Assembly (NCBI GenBank): GCA_005191425.1
Contig: SUPR01000059.1
Location: 1 to 22,361, forward strand
Direction of reading: 5' to 3'
DNA from: Candidatus Helarchaeota ASGARD archaeon Hel_GB_B
GTDB taxonomy: Archaea; Asgardarchaeota; Lokiarchaeia; Helarchaeales; HEL-GB-B
Length of the DNA stretch: 22,361 bases
Below the pieces are notes generated by a model. The model was not told the DNA's origin, ran no database searches, and worked only from the letters and a program-made list of their open reading frames with translations. Below are positions 16,197 through 22,252 of the stretch, in pieces (the stretch's first letter is position 1; every line of letters starts with the position of its first letter). Position numbers and translations under genes: made by a program.

Positions 16197-17741
16197 ATGA
16201 AAAGTTTAGACTTTTTACTACTCATTTCTCCTCAAAAGCCATTTCTCAGACCATTTGACGTATTTTACCCCTTTTCACATCAACAAGACAAGAATTTTTT
16301 ACCTCTATCAAATGGTGGACTGTCATTACTTGGTGTTCTAAATGAAGAATTTGAAGTTGGGTTCCATGATCTTGCACATTTCAAATATTTAAAAAAATCT
16401 TCTCTTAGAGAAACTGTAGAAAATGTTATTAAAAAATACAATCCAAAAATTGTAGGACTACATTGTTATACATTTAATTTTAATGGGATGAAAGAAACTC
16501 TAAAATACATTAAAGAAATTAATGAAAACATAATAACAATAGCAGGAGGACAACATGTTACCTTTCAAGATGAAGAATCAATAAAAGAATGTAATGGAAA
16601 TTTAGATATTGTCGTACGCGGTGAAGGTGAAAAAATTATTTACAATTTAATAAACGCACTAATTAAAAATAAACCGTTAAAAAATGTTCGAGGAATAACG
16701 ACTGATAGTTTTAAAACAGTGGATGAACTCCCCTTAACTACTGAAGAGTTAAATTCATTGCCTAATCCTTTATTCAGTGCAATTCCAATAGAAGAACGTA
16801 AATCCTTAATTTATTATCCAATTAATAGCTCAAGAGGGTGTTCATACCGGTGCCTGTTTTGTGTCAATCATGAGTTTTGGATTGGTGGAGTACGATTTAT
16901 GGATCCAGAAAAAGTAATTTCGACCATTAATGATCTATATGACTGTTTTAAACATAAAAGAATATTTATGGACTTTACAGATACTATCTTACCACTTCAT
17001 CTGGAAAAATTCAAGGATCTTGTAAATTTATATACTAGTGAAATCAACCAACCAATTTATTTTGCCTTAACAAGAGCAAATTATACTGATGATGAACGGT
17101 TGATGTTAATAAAAAGATTGATTCAAGATGTAGGAGTACTCTCCATAGGAGTAGAAAATGGGAATAATGAAGTTCTTAGAATAATGAGAAAACCATCATG
17201 GGAAAAACAGCTTCAAGCATTAAAAAATATTAGAAAATTTAAAATGAAATTAACCCCATCTTGGTTGATTGGACATCCGGGAGAAACATTATCTACAATG
17301 GTAGAAAATTTACAGAAGATAGACTTTTTATTCAATAATAAATTAATAGATACATTAATACCATTCATATGGGTACCTTTACCAGGAACCCCTCCGTTTG
17401 AAAACCCAGATAAATATCATGTCAAAATTATATCATACGACTGGGATAGATACGATAGAGCAATTTATCTCCCACCATACCATTTATTAGACCCATTTGA
17501 CCATAATAAAATAGCATTAAGCAACCAACAAATCTGGGCATATTTTTTGGGGGTTATTTCATTGTGCAATAAAAATAGTACCAATTTCAATTTTAAAGAA
17601 GTTCATGAACGAATTACATTTGATCAATTTTTAACAAGAGTAAAAAATGACCACCTTTATACATTGTTCAGCCCTGGAAAAGATGGTGACATTAATTATT
17701 ATCCGGATTTAGACCAATTCTTAGTCCCACAAGAAACATAA
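16197..17741 (+). CDS. Cobalamin-binding (class B) radical SAM protein
   Basis: N-terminal B12-binding domain (IAGGQHVT, DIVVRGEGE), SSRGCSYRCLFC (CxxxCxxC), SIGVENG and IGHPGET. GGTGA at 16188-16192 before ATG. Confidence 0.9.
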   Translation: MKSLDFLLLISPQKPFLRPFDVFYPFSHQQDKNFLPLSNGGLSLLGVLNEEFEVGFHDLAHFKYLKKSSLRETVENVIKKYNPKIVGLHCYTFNFNGMKETLKYIKEINENIITIAGGQHVTFQDEESIKECNGNLDIVVRGEGEKIIYNLINALIKNKPLKNVRGITTDSFKTVDELPLTTEELNSLPNPLFSAIPIEERKSLIYYPINSSRGCSYRCLFCVNHEFWIGGVRFMDPEKVISTINDLYDCFKHKRIFMDFTDTILPLHLEKFKDLVNLYTSEINQPIYFALTRANYTDDERLMLIKRLIQDVGVLSIGVENGNNEVLRIMRKPSWEKQLQALKNIRKFKMKLTPSWLIGHPGETLSTMVENLQKIDFLFNNKLIDTLIPFIWVPLPGTPPFENPDKYHVKIISYDWDRYDRAIYLPPYHLLDPFDHNKIALSNQQIWAYFLGVISLCNKNSTNFNFKEVHERITFDQFLTRVKNDHLYTLFSPGKDGDINYYPDLDQFLVPQET

Positions 17742-17764: not shown

Positions 17765-20700
17765 TCATAATTTTTTTCGTAATCGCCTTATCCAAGGTTT
17801 TATCTCACTCCAATCATATCTAAGAATTTCAGGTTCAAATTTTAAATTCCAATTTTTTAATTTCCTTTTAATTAATTCTTTAAGTTCAATATCATAACAA
17901 ATAATAACAATATTGACATTGGATAATTGCACCTCTTGAATTGAAAGATCTGTCCTTAATTGTTCTATTTCATTTTCTTCAAAAATTAAATTTATTATTA
18001 TGGAAAAGTTAGGTAAAAATATATCATAATTTATTTCTATGTCAAATGCTTTATTGTCTGTCCTAAAACTGATATCATTATTAGATAACTGTTCAATTAT
18101 ATTTTTTTTAAGTATTTTTTTCCCAGATATTCTATTAGCCCAGCCATAATATATATCATATAAATTATTATTGTCTAAATTATATATTTTATAACTTTTT
18201 AAGTTTTTAATAGGAGCTATTTTTTTTTCTACTAATGAAATATTACACCCTAAATAATCTGAAATTTCTTCAACTTTAGGAAAATCAGTCCCAAATTTTT
18301 CAAGTAATACATCGGGATAATAATCAGAGAAATCTTGTTTTATTTCTTCAATAATTTGATAATCATCAAGTTTTTCTAAAGATCTTTTATTAAAATTGAT
18401 GGTATCATTCATTTTTTTATTATCAATAAAAGAATTAAAGTGCATTGAATCTTGGCCTATATTATTTTTGGATTGACTATTATAAGTTAAAAATTGGAGG
18501 TTATGATTTAATCCATTTTCTATAAGTTTTTCTAATTCATTCCAATCATTATTATTAAAACTAAATACAAATATTTCATTATAATTCCATTTATTTAACC
18601 AATTTTTTATTTTAATTTTATCAGAAATAAAGCCTGTTATAATAATAAATTGATTTATTTCTTTTTCACAAGATTCCATCATTAAATCAGTAAATTGTTT
18701 TCTGAAATTATCTTGATTTATCATATTATATTCTTGGACATATAATTTGATCAAGATATTTTCCGTAAACCAAATATAATCAAACAAGCTGCCTTTTTCT
18801 GCATAACCAAATATTCCTGGTTGTACAAATTCACGTTCGATTAAATTTTTAACAGCATTTAACAAATAATCAGTCCCATCATTTAAGCAATACCATTTTT
18901 GCAATTTGTTTTTTTCAAAAACGGGCACTAATTTCGAAGATATAATTCCATTTTCAATCAGTTCTTCAATTTCAAGTTCAAATTCTTCAAGATTTATATT
19001 CAATTTAGCAATAATTTGATATTTATTAAGAGGATTTCTAATCAAAATATCGCGTAATTTAAGATAGAAATATTTTCCCTTGCTGGAAAGATTTTTCCAA
19101 TAAATTTTTTCCCAATCTTGAAGGTTAAAATCATTATCTTCAAAAATTTGATTTTGAATTTCATTGTGACTTAAATTTTGTTCATTATTTTTAATAATAT
19201 AATTATTTCTATCAAGATATACAATAGATTTGCCTCGTTTTGTTGGGTTGTTAGGTTGTTCATTATTGTTTTGAGTAGAATTACTTATTTCAATATAATT
19301 TTTTGAAGATCTTTGAATACTTGAACCGTCCATATCTAAATCATTTGTATTTTTATAAATAAAGGGAAAATGGAACTTATTGTTTTCATATATTTCTTTC
19401 TTTGAAACATGATCAAAATATGAATCAATTGTCCTGATCCTAAATGGATATGAAAAACTTGGGATTGTAATTATAGCCTCTCTTTTTGGCATTATTTTTA
19501 AGTATTCTTCTTGTTCTTTATTCAAATTTTGATAATTTGCAATTTTCTTGGCATCATAAGTACTTCTAAAGGACACTTTAATACCAGAATTACTTATAAT
19601 GTCTGGACTTATTTCAGGCCTTGTGGCGATTGTTATCATACTTTGTCCAACACCCCTTAATAATAATGGAATATCTTCACCCAAATTTGTTTCTGCAACT
19701 TCCCTTAAGATCGCTGGTAATAATAATTGAGAGTCTTCTATTACAATTATGTGTTTTAATTCTTGAGTTAGCCCACGGCGAAGAGCATTATCAAATATAA
19801 ATTTTAAAATTAAGTTCATCAGAAATCGGACATCTTGTTTAGTCCCACCATTACTTAGTAAATAGTTAAAATCAAAAATTACCTTCTTGTCCATCAAACT
19901 TTGAAATTTGAAATTTGTTTTATCTACATAAAAAATCTTTTTTAAATTTCCAGACCGAAATCTATCGAACCTGTTTTCTAATGAATTTATAGTCATTCGG
20001 ATTGTTGGATTTTTTGTTGAATTATTTCGGAGATAAATTTTAAGCTCTTCAAAAAAAGCTTTAAGACTTCTTTTAGAGGGATCGCATACCACTTCTTTTA
20101 TAACTTCGCGGCATACTTTTTCCATTTGGATTGAAAGTTCTGTTTTGTTTTGAAAATCAGATTTAAATAACTCGACTATTATTGAAAATAGTTTTCTTGC
20201 ATGCTCTTCCTCATTGCTATCATAAGGGTCGAACATATTTATCTGAAAAGGCGCTTCGATAGAACCTGGTCTGAGTACTAAAATAGGAATATTATCTTTA
20301 TTTTTTATTAACTCTACATAGTCACCTTTCCAGTCTAAACATATCCAATTTATTTCAGGATAAAACTTCGATATATTTTTCAGGATATTTTTTACAAATG
20401 TTGTTTTCCCCATTCCAATTAAACCGGTAACGAACATATTTAATCTAAGGTCCATAACATCCAGACCTACTTGAAATAAATCAGTTTTGTCTCTAAATAA
20501 TGCAGTCCCGATAACTAATTTTTGTTCTACAATATCTTTTGGTGGTATTTCAAAATTTGGGATATTAGTCCTATTTATTGAAGGAAATGGTTCTTCGGGT
20601 AAGTGTAAATATGTTGCAAGCCTTTCACTTGTTAATATTGAATCTTTGCCTAATTTATCTCTAATAATAAGTTTTGGTAAGATGTAATATAATAAATTTT

Positions 20701-22087
20701 TTTTAACTATTTCTAAATCGATTGAATGTTGATTACCACTAAATATTGAATCAATTATAGCAATTATTTTTTTTGAACTTCGTTGTATCTCTTCAAAATT
20801 ATAAGACCTTATAATAAAATATGCAGAAACCCGCCATAATGCAGTTATTTCAACATGTCTAATTTTCAATATTTTTTGTCGGAAATCGTTTTCGGGGATA
20901 TTTGTAAGGTCATAAAAAGGATTGTTTTCCCCATTTTTAAATTTATAAAGTTCAAAAGGCTGGAAATTAATGATAAAACTACCATTTGAAATATTACTAC
21001 CCAATATAGACATTATTAAATTGTCAATTTGAGTTCTTTTTGAATATGCCTTAATTTCTGGTTTTCCAATTAATTTTATTATCTGTAAATATAATTTCTT
21101 TTCTTTTTGGTTAATTTCTAAAATATCTTCCTCATTAATTTTTATATTAAATTTACCTATACCACCAATTACATCAGACCAAGCTTTTCTTAAGGCATCG
21201 CCATCTAAAATAGTAAATTTCAATTCTGGAAATGATGTTTTGTAGATTTCGATTATAATATCAATTTTTGACCTCAAATCTTTTAAAAGTTCCTCCAGAT
21301 TTTTCCCCTCCATTGTAAAAAATAATCTTAAATGAACTTTATTACTCTCTATTGTTATTTCATAACTAAAACTAACCTCTTCAAGATAATTAAATAATGC
21401 TGTAAGATGGTAATGTAAATAATGTTGGTTATTATTAACAAATATTTTTTCTATATTTTTCATCAACAGTCTATTTTCTCTGACTTGAATGTTTTTAGGG
21501 ATATTTGAAACTTCTAATATGGAAATAATCCTATAATAACCTTTTTTACTAGATAATACAACAGCTTGACCGATAATTTTATGATTTATAACTTTATATT
21601 TTAAGTTTCCTGCAATTAAATAATTTTTAATCAGAATATAAATAATAATTATTGACCAAATACCAAAAAATACTATAATTTTTAGTATCCACATACCTAT
21701 TATTAACATCGAATTAATTACTATAATTTGAATTTCAGAAGGAATAATACCCAGTCCAATAATCATTTCAGTAATACTTATTGTGATACCCAATAAGACA
21801 ATAATTAATTCAATTTTTTTTAAATATTTAGAGGTATTTTTTTTCGTTCTAAAATAATCTACGATGAGAATAGCAATACAAAAAAATAAAATTGTAAAAA
21901 TAAGGGCTGTATAAAATTTAAAATAGTTTAATATATTTCCTATAAATATTAAATTCGAGAATCGTATATTGTTTATCAAAATATTAATAACTAATAAAAT
22001 AACTCCATATATTAAAAAAATAAAAAAACAGATTTTTAATAAATTCACTCTACTTTTGAGACTTTTTTTATTTTTATAATGTTTCAC
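17765..22087 (-). CDS. Membrane-anchored HerA/VirB4-like (DUF87-type) P-loop ATPase with duplicated C-terminal modules
   Basis: 1440 aa with ~4-5 N-terminal TM segments. Walker A GLIGMGKTT, LDWKGDY, variant Walker B IVIEDSQ and LLRGVG Arg-finger region. An N/Q-rich linker is followed by two ~180-aa similar modules. GTG start. Confidence 0.8.
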   Translation of the reverse strand: MKHYKNKKSLKSRVNLLKICFFIFLIYGVILLVINILINNIRFSNLIFIGNILNYFKFYTALIFTILFFCIAILIVDYFRTKKNTSKYLKKIELIIVLLGITISITEMIIGLGIIPSEIQIIVINSMLIIGMWILKIIVFFGIWSIIIIYILIKNYLIAGNLKYKVINHKIIGQAVVLSSKKGYYRIISILEVSNIPKNIQVRENRLLMKNIEKIFVNNNQHYLHYHLTALFNYLEEVSFSYEITIESNKVHLRLFFTMEGKNLEELLKDLRSKIDIIIEIYKTSFPELKFTILDGDALRKAWSDVIGGIGKFNIKINEEDILEINQKEKKLYLQIIKLIGKPEIKAYSKRTQIDNLIMSILGSNISNGSFIINFQPFELYKFKNGENNPFYDLTNIPENDFRQKILKIRHVEITALWRVSAYFIIRSYNFEEIQRSSKKIIAIIDSIFSGNQHSIDLEIVKKNLLYYILPKLIIRDKLGKDSILTSERLATYLHLPEEPFPSINRTNIPNFEIPPKDIVEQKLVIGTALFRDKTDLFQVGLDVMDLRLNMFVTGLIGMGKTTFVKNILKNISKFYPEINWICLDWKGDYVELIKNKDNIPILVLRPGSIEAPFQINMFDPYDSNEEEHARKLFSIIVELFKSDFQNKTELSIQMEKVCREVIKEVVCDPSKRSLKAFFEELKIYLRNNSTKNPTIRMTINSLENRFDRFRSGNLKKIFYVDKTNFKFQSLMDKKVIFDFNYLLSNGGTKQDVRFLMNLILKFIFDNALRRGLTQELKHIIVIEDSQLLLPAILREVAETNLGEDIPLLLRGVGQSMITIATRPEISPDIISNSGIKVSFRSTYDAKKIANYQNLNKEQEEYLKIMPKREAIITIPSFSYPFRIRTIDSYFDHVSKKEIYENNKFHFPFIYKNTNDLDMDGSSIQRSSKNYIEISNSTQNNNEQPNNPTKRGKSIVYLDRNNYIIKNNEQNLSHNEIQNQIFEDNDFNLQDWEKIYWKNLSSKGKYFYLKLRDILIRNPLNKYQIIAKLNINLEEFELEIEELIENGIISSKLVPVFEKNKLQKWYCLNDGTDYLLNAVKNLIEREFVQPGIFGYAEKGSLFDYIWFTENILIKLYVQEYNMINQDNFRKQFTDLMMESCEKEINQFIIITGFISDKIKIKNWLNKWNYNEIFVFSFNNNDWNELEKLIENGLNHNLQFLTYNSQSKNNIGQDSMHFNSFIDNKKMNDTINFNKRSLEKLDDYQIIEEIKQDFSDYYPDVLLEKFGTDFPKVEEISDYLGCNISLVEKKIAPIKNLKSYKIYNLDNNNLYDIYYGWANRISGKKILKKNIIEQLSNNDISFRTDNKAFDIEINYDIFLPNFSIIINLIFEENEIEQLRTDLSIQEVQLSNVNIVIICYDIELKELIKRKLKNWNLKFEPEILRYDWSEIKPWIRRLRKKL

Positions 22088-22110
22088 ACCAGTATATTAT
22101 CCTAAAAAGT

Positions 22111-22118
22111 TATTTAAA
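22111..22118 (-). promoter_or_regulatory. Candidate TATA box (TTTAAATA) for a leaderless ATPase transcript
   Basis: Centre ~27 nt upstream of GTG 22087. Confidence 0.3.
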
Positions 22119-22161
22119 CACCTAAAAATAATATTTGCGACTTTCGTTTTAACAATATTTA

Positions 22162-22252
22162 AAGAACATTTGTCAGAAATTTGCGCAAAGAATCATTGAA
22201 ATCTTATCAAATTTCGTTCATTGCAGGTCAGTTTCATCATCCAAATGTTCTT
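22162..22252 (-). ncRNA. Box C/D 2'-O-methylation guide sRNA, predicted SSU rRNA helix-34 guide (U25/snR56-like)
   Basis: Minus strand: AAGAACATTTG-G-ATGATGA (C box 22240-22234), guide AACTGACCTGCA, ATGA (D' 22221-22218), 7-bp hairpin, ATGATTC (C' 22196-22190), TTTGCGCAAATTT, CTGA (D 22176-22173), CAAATGTTCTT. The terminal 11-mers are exact reverse complements and leave a 3-nt K-turn bulge. Confidence 0.88.

Follow-up and report, generated by a model that had tools for sequence, protein, structure and literature searches.

What a 1440-residue membrane ATPase does in an Asgard archaeon, and whether it does so by itself, is the question raised by a gene near one end of a 22,361-nt stretch of DNA from Candidatus Helarchaeota archaeon Hel_GB_B (the window; positions 1-22,361 of contig SUPR01000059.1, assembly GCA_005191425.1). 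The reading that we favour, with a probability of roughly 0.45, is that the protein is the VirB4-type membrane motor of a DNA-handling envelope machine that resembles the Ced system or a type IV secretion system (T4SS). The protein is probably one part of a conserved and undescribed Asgard envelope gene cluster, and not a machine on its own.

Identification of the gene and its protein family

The gene and the parts of its product were assigned by combining the open reading frame (ORF) with alignments of relatives, hydropathy and predicted structures, which gave the following features (aa, amino acids; positions are those of the window):

17765-22087, minus strand: whole gene, a single ORF of 1440 aa (P0001) with a GTG start and its stop codon at 17765-17767
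22109-22124, minus strand: promoter-like element, TAGGTGTTTAAATAAC (consensus AGGAGTTTAAATAT), in a block conserved upstream of five orthologs
21608-22054, minus strand: predicted N-terminal membrane anchor, aa 12-160, four strong hydrophobic helices in a Kyte-Doolittle scan
20558-21595, minus strand: N-domain, aa 165-510, mixed alpha/beta, aligning with the VirB4 N-terminal domain in whole-protein structural alignments
19409-20557, minus strand: RecA-like P-loop ATPase domain, aa 511-893, from structural alignment with VIA-align and a DUF87 match
20402-20425, minus strand: Walker A motif GLIGMGKT, aa 555-562, with G555, G558, G560 and K561 invariant
19727-19753, minus strand: Walker B region HIIVIEDSQ, aa 779-787, with E784, D785 and Q787 invariant
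19616-19627, minus strand: ATRP motif, aa 821-824, all four residues invariant
19088-19408, minus strand: low-complexity linker, aa 894-1000, N/Q-rich (28% N+Q in aa 901-1000), of varying length among relatives
18509-19087, minus strand: tail module 1, aa 1001-1193, predicted winged helix (aa ~1002-1068) and alpha-beta-beta-beta-alpha-beta endonuclease-like domain (aa ~1074-1191)
18371-18505, minus strand: inter-module linker, aa 1195-1239, predicted to be disordered (predicted local distance difference test, pLDDT, <50 at model residues 206-250)
17768-18367, minus strand: tail module 2, aa 1241-1440, predicted second winged helix and endonuclease-like domain, with the same secondary-structure order as module 1

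Among 5.8 billion proteins searched, about 20 are full-length relatives with 34-60% identity which, where named, are Helarchaeota or Promethearchaeota proteins called "ATP-binding protein"; across the public records, relatives are labelled "ATP-binding protein", "DUF87 domain-containing protein" or "hypothetical protein". Because there are about 20 full-length relatives and more than 100 columns of their alignment are invariant, the 1440-aa ORF is, as judged from sequence conservation, a real gene under selection. The GTG start is also found in two close orthologs, the base composition is even across this region of the window, and a paralog of 1375 aa is encoded on contig C135 of the same genome. 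No public contig record encoding the exact protein was found; the public sequencing runs that carry the DNA are hydrothermal-vent and marine-sediment metagenomes, and no RNA run is listed among them. The TATA-like core of the promoter-like element stops 24 nt ahead of the GTG, which suggests that the ATPase gene is served by a promoter of its own and that its mRNA is leaderless or has a short leader.

These features agree closely with a preliminary description of the same DNA. It had proposed a multi-part ORF of 1440 aa at 17765-22087, which is one open frame on the minus strand, and within it a membrane anchor, a soluble region, a HerA/VirB4-type ATPase and tandem DNA-binding modules, an architecture that the present analysis bears out. 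The 4-5 transmembrane (TM) helices placed at ~22050-21620 correspond to the four strong hydropathy peaks; the soluble region of ~350 aa behind them is present at aa 165-510; the Walker A motif expected at ~20400-20427 is the GLIGMGKT at nt 20402-20425; the N/Q-rich linker at ~19240-19280 was recovered at aa ~935-950 (nt ~19240-19285); and the tandem DNA-binding modules were modelled as two winged-helix and endonuclease-fold modules. The description would have been overturned by homologs well characterised in another function, and no characterised homolog was found.

Modelled likeness of the motor and N-domain to VirB4 and CedB

Hydropathy of the N-terminus peaks at aa 19, 58, 94 and 134, and both the N-terminus itself and the loop at aa 79-92 are rich in lysine and predicted to be cytoplasmic. 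We count four helices and not five, because four helices are compatible with an inside, lysine-rich N-terminus and a cytoplasmic ATPase, whereas a fifth would place the motor outside the cell. Between one and six hydrophobic peaks are found near the N-terminus in most of the full-length relatives scanned.

Motif conservation in the ATPase domain was read across an alignment of 18 relatives. The acidic pair E784-D785 sits after a hydrophobic strand, as part of the Walker B region, and the ATRP motif, which we take to resemble the (A)TQRP arginine-finger motif of FtsK and HerA, would by that analogy supply an arginine finger. In a six-frame search of the genome the model of DUF87 (PF01935), which is the central domain of HerA, matched this gene with 35.1 bits against a cut-off of 23.2 bits; two other DUF87 genes of the genome, frames of 551 and 510 aa, score far higher. 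Nine of ten sampled relatives also exceed the DUF87 threshold, with scores of 37-68 bits among these more distant relatives. In a whole-protein Pfam hmmscan all P-loop matches fell below threshold and DUF87 was not listed. A profile of aa 490-900 searched against 1.8 billion proteins matched 2713 cluster representatives at E <= 0.001 and 173 at E <= 1e-30. The PADLOC models gave weak matches to HerA (3e-6) and mad8 (3.7e-6), and searches of the PDB sequences with phmmer and the ATPase profile were marginal, the best being a SIR2-HerA-type NTPase (E 0.009) and DptH (0.13).

The ATPase domain aligned by VIA-align with the C-terminal domain of VirB4 (4ag5) at Z 31.8, with a root-mean-square deviation (rmsd) of 2.8 over 334 aligned residues, followed by DndH-C (Z 30.8, counted as the third-best structural match), TrwB (Z 26.9), HerA (Z 26.7, within a span of Z 24-27 for all HerA matches) and FtsK (Z 18.6, ~215 residues). 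These alignments used an AlphaFold2 (AF2) model of aa 165-900 (m28403c7d68a7; pLDDT 78.8, 736 residues), which was also compared as a whole, by Foldseek, with full-length structures. Full-length TrwK/VirB4 in the PDB matched at E 1.5e-23 over ~820-850 columns, and in the AlphaFold database (AFDB) residues 15-741 of Agrobacterium VirB4 matched model residues 2-724 at E 2e-24; full-length VirB4, TraC, TrbE and CagE all fell within E 1e-24 to 1e-21. Residues 25-590 of Sulfolobus CedB (Q4JAQ5) matched model residues 100-723 at E 1e-21, and HerA reached 5e-16 at best, with alignments that begin only at model residue ~146. The preliminary description had named CedB, HerA, VirB4 and TrwB as the proteins to compare and had called the motor HerA/VirB4-like; VirB4 ranks above HerA in these comparisons, and DUF87, the invariant motifs and the structural matches to VirB4 and CedB place the motor in the FtsK-HerA superfamily, closest in its modelled structure to VirB4 and CedB. 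The soluble region of ~350 aa is best read, on the same models, as a VirB4-type N-domain.

Because the two-domain fold matches VirB4 but no VirB4 sequence model does, the protein is VirB4-shaped without being a sequence-level member of the VirB4 family. It shares with VirB4, TrwK and TraC the core of an N-domain and a RecA-like C-domain, as well as the membrane association known for VirB4. It differs from VirB4 in that its N-terminal end is extended by four TM helices, in carrying a 550-aa tail with two winged-helix and endonuclease-fold modules, and in being encoded by a chromosomal, vertically conserved gene, not on a plasmid or an integrative and conjugative element. CedB and TedB are likewise archaeal, chromosomal VirB4/HerA-like ATPases, although CedB has only 597 aa and no DNA-binding tail. 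HerA, the archaeal helicase of double-strand-break repair, belongs to the same superfamily and shares the Pfam domain DUF87, but the Asgard protein is membrane-anchored, VirB4 outscores HerA whether the ATPase domain or the whole core is compared, and no NurA, Mre11, Rad50, SIR2 or DUF4297 partner was seen in the window or at 32 loci of the family.

The C-terminal tail

About 450 structured residues lie beyond the N/Q-rich stretch. An AF2 model of aa 990-1440 (m9920df6cfa78, pLDDT 82) shows two modules, each with four helices and a beta hairpin that form a winged helix, followed by an alpha-beta-beta-beta-alpha-beta-alpha-beta-alpha domain. The two modules align with each other by hhalign (E 4e-6, probability 73%, 182 columns), and the tail is, in its modelled structure, a tandem repeat of winged-helix and restriction-endonuclease-like modules. 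For the first winged helix there are many matches at Z ~9 to proteins with this fold, among them TFE, ORC2 and ArsR/SmtB. For the endonuclease-like domain the matches are the Can2 nuclease domain (Z 9.1) and PspGI, BsoBI and SgrAI (Z 8.2-8.6), and the tail modules match predicted models of Mrr, DpnII, DUF91 and DUF4143 proteins at E 1e-5 to 3e-4, so that an endonuclease fold is likely. In pairing matches to the DUF4143, Mrr_cat, DpnII-MboI and DUF91 models with MarR/ArsR winged helices, the tail resembles proteins of the AAA_14-DUF4143 and Mrr type; it differs from them in that the matches are weak (TM 0.24-0.34, E ~1e-5), the catalytic signature is incomplete, and two modules stand in tandem behind a VirB4-like membrane motor.

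Conservation differs between the two copies. In module 1 an acidic residue at 1086 (D/E) is present in all 18 relatives, D1103 in 16 and K1114 in 17, and this module may still cut DNA; in module 2 none of these D/K positions is conserved, and any catalytic role has probably been lost. Shorter relatives in Helarchaeota also have module 1, in one copy, and module 2 is confined to the clade of ~1400-aa proteins. Near the C-terminus of the protein in some other Asgard lineages there are weak, sub-threshold matches to MarR/TrmB-type winged helices.

Regions shaped like module 1 were also seen in DUF87/HerA-type proteins of ~660-670 aa, whose clusters are mostly bacterial (most commonly Planctomycetota), and in a 1242-aa protein named "DNA helicase". 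The combination of ATPase, winged helix and endonuclease fold may thus recur outside the Asgard ATPase family, to judge from these models.

Genomic context of the ATPase gene

Downstream, the ATPase gene converges with a B12-binding radical SAM gene (16197-17741, plus strand), beyond which lie a THUMP/UPF0020 methyltransferase gene, a tRNase Z-like gene and an EF-2 paralog. This gene order is retained at a locus where the ATPase is only 37% identical, and synteny with these neighbours holds down to 35% identity. An origin of the gene in a mobile element was considered and rejected on account of this conserved housekeeping synteny and the uniform base composition, which also argue against a defence island.

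Upstream, the contig ends 274 bp from the gene, so the neighbours on that side cannot be read from the window. The context was therefore examined at 32 loci of the family, some on public contigs and others in genomes of the phylum, by clustering the ORFs and counting neighbours within 10 kb on either side of the ATPase; a contig scan for close loci yielded six close Helarchaeota-like loci only. The recurrent neighbours were:

16 of 32 loci: protein of ~600 aa, most copies of which have both an N-terminal and a C-terminal TM helix, with weak Ig/MG-like matches
13 of 32 loci: TFIIB-like (TFB-like) protein of ~344 aa, with a zinc ribbon and a cyclin repeat
12 of 32 loci: T2SSE-family ATPase
8 of 32 loci: Ras-like GTPase, with a ~300-aa protein at the same 8 loci and a Roadblock-domain protein at 6

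Where the contig permits, a polytopic protein of 503 aa follows T2SSE, and the atlas clusters nearest to it are T2SSF (score 0.96). Gene order varies between the Helarchaeota clades, Thorarchaeota and other families, so the proximity of these genes has survived rearrangement. No nurA, mre11 or rad50 gene was present at the 32 loci. The preliminary description had reported that nurA, mre11, rad50, T4SS and ced genes are lacking around the ATPase gene; this holds for the neighbours in the window, but on the upstream side only the 274 bp before the contig end are available.

In the Hel_GB_B genome itself, contig C131 carries, in order, genes for an ArsR-type helix-turn-helix (HTH) protein, a Roadblock protein, a 300-aa protein, a Ras-like GTPase, a 600-aa surface protein, a small three-TM protein, T2SSE (744 aa), the T2SSF-like protein (503 aa), an Arf-like GTPase and the TFB-like protein, and stops 120 bp past the last of these. 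The locus of the closest ortholog, L011 (69% identity in the core), has the C131 order over the part that it covers, from the surface protein to the TFB-like gene; past the latter come a C/D-box-like RNA, then the ATPase gene and the radical SAM gene. Read on the strand of the gene, the window shows the same continuation: a C/D-box-like element, the ATPase and the radical SAM gene. Because L011 shows both halves in one order, the end of C131 most likely abuts the end of the window, a placement based on gene order; no sequence overlap between the two ends was found.

A second full gene set surrounds the 1375-aa paralog on contig C135 (L007), where the radical SAM protein is 62% identical to that of the window. 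As the entire set has been duplicated and retained, this duplication is the strongest sign that the genes work together. It weakens the case for the stand-alone, single-gene machine that the preliminary description had envisaged, as does the conserved gene set upstream of the ATPase in orthologs and on C131.

The two paralogous sets, on C131 (L037 3469-16256; with the window as its probable continuation) and on C135 (L007), span ~17-20 kb each. Both comprise the ArsR-type HTH protein, Roadblock protein (323-333 aa), ~300-aa protein, Ras-like GTPase, surface protein, small three-TM protein, T2SSE, TFB-like protein, VirB4-like ATPase and radical SAM gene, with the two halves in different order. 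The T2SSF-like gene was seen in the C131 copy only; the stretch of C135 examined ends inside the T2SSE gene. The radical SAM gene converges with both paralogs (L007 8418-9965, plus strand) and with the ATPase gene at L005, L008 and L011, whereas at L009 one gene separates the two; the radical SAM gene may be part of the same module.

Several of these neighbours have features of their own. The surface-type proteins range from 560 to 830 aa (for example L007 2217-4016, minus strand, and L027 11831-13804, plus strand), with a hydrophobic helix at the N-terminus, one at the C-terminus in most copies and weak MG4, Big_1 and CarboxypepD_reg matches, and are probably anchored surface proteins. No informative atlas neighbours (scores <0.8) were obtained for the small three-TM protein of the Helarchaeales cluster. 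The genes for the Roadblock protein, the ~300-aa protein and the Ras-like GTPase (L007 4066-6614, minus strand; L037 3973-6451, plus strand) recall, by our own comparison, the MglB/MglA pairs that steer type IV pili. The same trio may be likened to CvnB, CvnC and CvnD of the actinobacterial conservons (PMC13343842). Between the contig end and the ATPase gene, a C/D-box-like small RNA was noted at 22169-22246 on the minus strand, with the boxes GGATGATGA...CTGACC and ...TGAT...TCTGACAAA; the same element precedes the ATPase at L004 and also at L011, where the TFB-like gene lies on its other side. Matches of the region upstream of the gene to C/D snoRNA families in Rfam are sub-threshold, at 26 and 21 bits.

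A pilin-like protein family in other lineages

In other Asgard lineages an unannotated family of two-TM proteins of 82-110 aa (alignment A5), with a short basic loop, is encoded near the ATPase. The gene is directly upstream of the ATPase in one Asgard family, 4.6-6 kb away in Thorarchaeota, where the locus tags are four apart in one assembly, and ~5 kb away in a third family. Examples are:

L026 15663-15911, plus strand: pilin-like protein
L017 12450-12701, minus strand: pilin-like protein
L034 16003-16335, minus strand: pilin-like protein

Matches of the family to TrbC/VirB2 are sub-threshold (18.5 and 14.3 bits), and its named feature neighbours in the atlas, to be taken as a lead only, are families of T4SS pilins or membrane proteins of conjugation elements (0.82-0.86). 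The large protein search with A5 returned only unnamed Asgard proteins that have no Pfam domain, and no match was found among the PDB sequences. The family comprises at least 626 proteins, matches in 141 of 301 Asgard genomes, with two to five copies in Thorarchaeota, and is, from its sequence features, a candidate conjugation-type (VirB2-like) pilin.

Distribution of the family in Asgard archaea

The distribution of the core was determined with a profile of aa 165-900 in 301 genomes sampled from the phylum of Asgard archaea. Matches were found in 218 of the 301 genomes, shorter forms counted, and in 71 of 90 high-quality genomes, at one to three per genome, with named relatives in Helarchaeota, Thorarchaeota and Njordarchaeota. 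The phyletic profile that the preliminary description had called for thus places the core family as widespread and vertically conserved in Asgard archaea. In several families the frames are 950-1330 aa long and the match extends over the N-domain. Within the class of Hel_GB_B, the best-sampled sister family (f3) has mostly the ATPase alone, in frames of 560-620 aa without N-domain or tail; hydropathy of these short forms suggests about three TM helices directly before the ATPase. One such short form (L031 9097-10893, minus strand) resembles CedB in size.

Proposed function and alternative explanations

VirB4 is the one ATPase common to all type IV secretion and conjugation systems. In the mechanism that we favour for the Asgard protein, its subunits would form a ring under the membrane, each held there by four TM helices, and hydrolysis of ATP, for which the Walker A, Walker B and ATRP motifs are intact, would move a substrate at the membrane. 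DNA would be the most likely substrate or cofactor, because the motor carries two winged-helix and endonuclease-fold modules on a flexible linker. The motor would cooperate with the TFB-like factor, the T2SSE/T2SSF pair, the surface proteins, the small polytopic membrane protein and the Ras/Roadblock switch. We infer both the translocation of DNA and the direction of transport.

The closest parallel is the Ced system, whose VirB4/HerA-like ATPase brings in DNA by way of a VirB2-like pilus (PMC9905601, PMC11868833, PMC6101591). In Sulfolobales, Ced works alongside type IV (Ups) pili, to which it has a functional link, and a TFB paralog controls or induces it (PMC11868833, PMC6101591), and the pilins of both Ced and Ted are VirB2-like (PMC9905601). 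The Asgard ATPase has a T2SSE/T2SSF pair and a TFB-like gene as neighbours, and in three families a VirB2-like candidate nearby; these parallels are based on gene position and are suggestive. The most likely role of the protein is that of the motor in a domesticated Ced/T4SS-like apparatus for DNA exchange or uptake.

Several observations weigh against this assignment. At the level of sequence, PF03135 (CagE_TrbE_VirB) has no match in the genome at E <= 1, the NCBIfam models, those for VirB4 included, give no family match, and no sequence model of a T4SS part matches. The match between the N-domain and VirB4 comes from local alignments of whole proteins and has a high global rmsd (~18 A), which is due to a different orientation of the domains. 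The endonuclease-fold matches are middling (Z 8-9, Foldseek E ~1e-5), module 1 has no canonical acidic residue two positions before its lysine, and the tails of the Thorarchaeota proteins have no similarity to the tail modules by hhalign, the tails being lineage-specific. The neighbourhood counts come from related genomes, are non-independent and are inflated by shared ancestry; some of the intervening genes are plainly housekeeping (S10, GlmS, EF-2); and the ATPase gene has a conserved putative promoter of its own, which makes co-expression with its neighbours no more than possible. The A5 family was not found in the Hel_GB_B genome or in any of the 76 genomes of its class (families f3 and f4), and no VirB6/CedA-like or relaxase-like partner was identified. 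More generally, no T4SS parts were seen in the neighbourhood data of the Hel_GB_B genome; no VirB6, VirB8, VirB11-proper or VirD4 partner was identified, VirB6 and VirB3 not having been searched for; and no annotated neighbour resembles cedA, cedA1 or cedA2, for which no dedicated search was made.

A different explanation of the architecture is that the protein is an analogue of FtsK/SpoIIIE, a single-gene septal pump that clears or segregates the chromosome at division, its TM helices anchoring it at the closing septum and its winged helices reading chromosome polarity or holding DNA. As in FtsK, four TM helices at the N-terminus are followed by a spacer, a motor from the same superfamily that bears an (A)T(Q)RP-type motif, and winged helices at the C-terminus. 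The genome, which is 94% complete, has no FtsK_SpoIIIE (PF01580) match above the cut-off, only two sub-threshold matches on other contigs; this too would suit an analogue of FtsK, as would the wide distribution of the family in Asgard archaea, its place among housekeeping genes and the conserved putative promoter. The gene itself, however, is without a PF01580 match, and its motor is nearer to VirB4, DndH, TrwB and HerA (Z 27-32) than to FtsK, to which its similarity is clearly lower. The N-domain aligns with that of VirB4, a domain that FtsK does not have, and each winged helix comes with an endonuclease-fold domain and has no specific likeness to the FtsK gamma domain. The company of T2SSE/T2SSF, surface-protein and pilin-like genes would be unexpected for a segregation pump, a division factor present as two paralogs in one genome, each beside a cluster of its own, would be odd, and the tails are not conserved across lineages, the closest sister family being mostly short and tail-less. 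We therefore regard a septal pump as unlikely.

The envelope genes that speak against a septal pump would be at home with a VirB4-type motor that assembles a surface filament or secretion structure, extracting pilin-like or other membrane proteins without transporting DNA, and using its winged-helix tail for regulation or docking. VirB4 acts in the dislocation of the pilin VirB2 from the bilayer. Besides the VirB4-like core, the T2SSE gene, the T2SSF-like platform, the doubly anchored Ig/MG-like surface proteins and the small three-TM protein would fit such a role, and so would the pilin-like two-TM protein near the ATPase in three families. What such a motor would leave hard to explain, in the absence of nucleic acid, is two copies of a winged-helix and endonuclease-fold module, and the weak, sub-threshold winged-helix matches in the tails of some other lineages add to that difficulty; moreover, the pilin-like gene is the very one not found in Hel_GB_B. 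A motor dedicated to protein assembly seems improbable on this evidence.

An anti-phage or anti-plasmid ATPase of the HerA-plus-nuclease kind (like SIR2-HerA, DUF4297-HerA or DndH/DptH), tethered to the membrane and cutting incoming DNA, was one option of the preliminary description and would account for the weak PADLOC matches to HerA and mad8, the DndH-C score and a combination of ATPase, winged helix and endonuclease fold that is a common defence layout, but it is the least probable of the explanations considered here, given neighbours with conserved synteny (EF-2 paralog, tRNase Z-like gene, tRNA methyltransferase, radical SAM) and no defence island, presence in most of the Asgard genomes searched, unlike patchy defence genes, a base composition that matches the surrounding DNA, and a nuclease signature of which module 1 keeps only part and which module 2 has lost.

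Implications for Asgard archaea

The motor family to which the protein belongs is known; its fusion, its tail and the conserved gene cluster are undescribed. A full-text search of the literature found no paper on a VirB4-like or HerA-like membrane ATPase in Asgard archaea, and archaeal VirB4 has so far been tied to DNA import in Sulfolobales and Thermoproteales only (Ced and Ted; PMC9905601). New here are a VirB4-shaped, membrane-anchored motor conserved across many Asgard lineages and its joint duplication with a fixed set of envelope and GTPase genes, with a pilin-like gene close by in some lineages.

A more far-reaching proposal, which goes beyond the motor itself and which we consider possible but doubtful, is that Asgard archaea possess a relative of the conjugation and Ced machinery that is encoded on the chromosome and inherited vertically. 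In it, a VirB4-like motor would have absorbed a membrane domain and, in Helarchaeales, DNA-binding and DNA-cutting modules, and would work with a type-IV-filament ATPase and platform, surface proteins, Ras/Roadblock proteins and a dedicated TFB-like factor to exchange DNA between cells or take it up. The cluster is a testable candidate for DNA exchange or the building of a surface machine in Asgard archaea, and as such bears on gene flow at the boundary between prokaryotes and eukaryotes. It also offers a possible function for Ras/Roadblock and TFB-like genes, which are usually discussed only as eukaryote-like signatures. If the proposal is true, the closest prokaryotic relatives of eukaryotes would possess a regulated DNA-exchange system.

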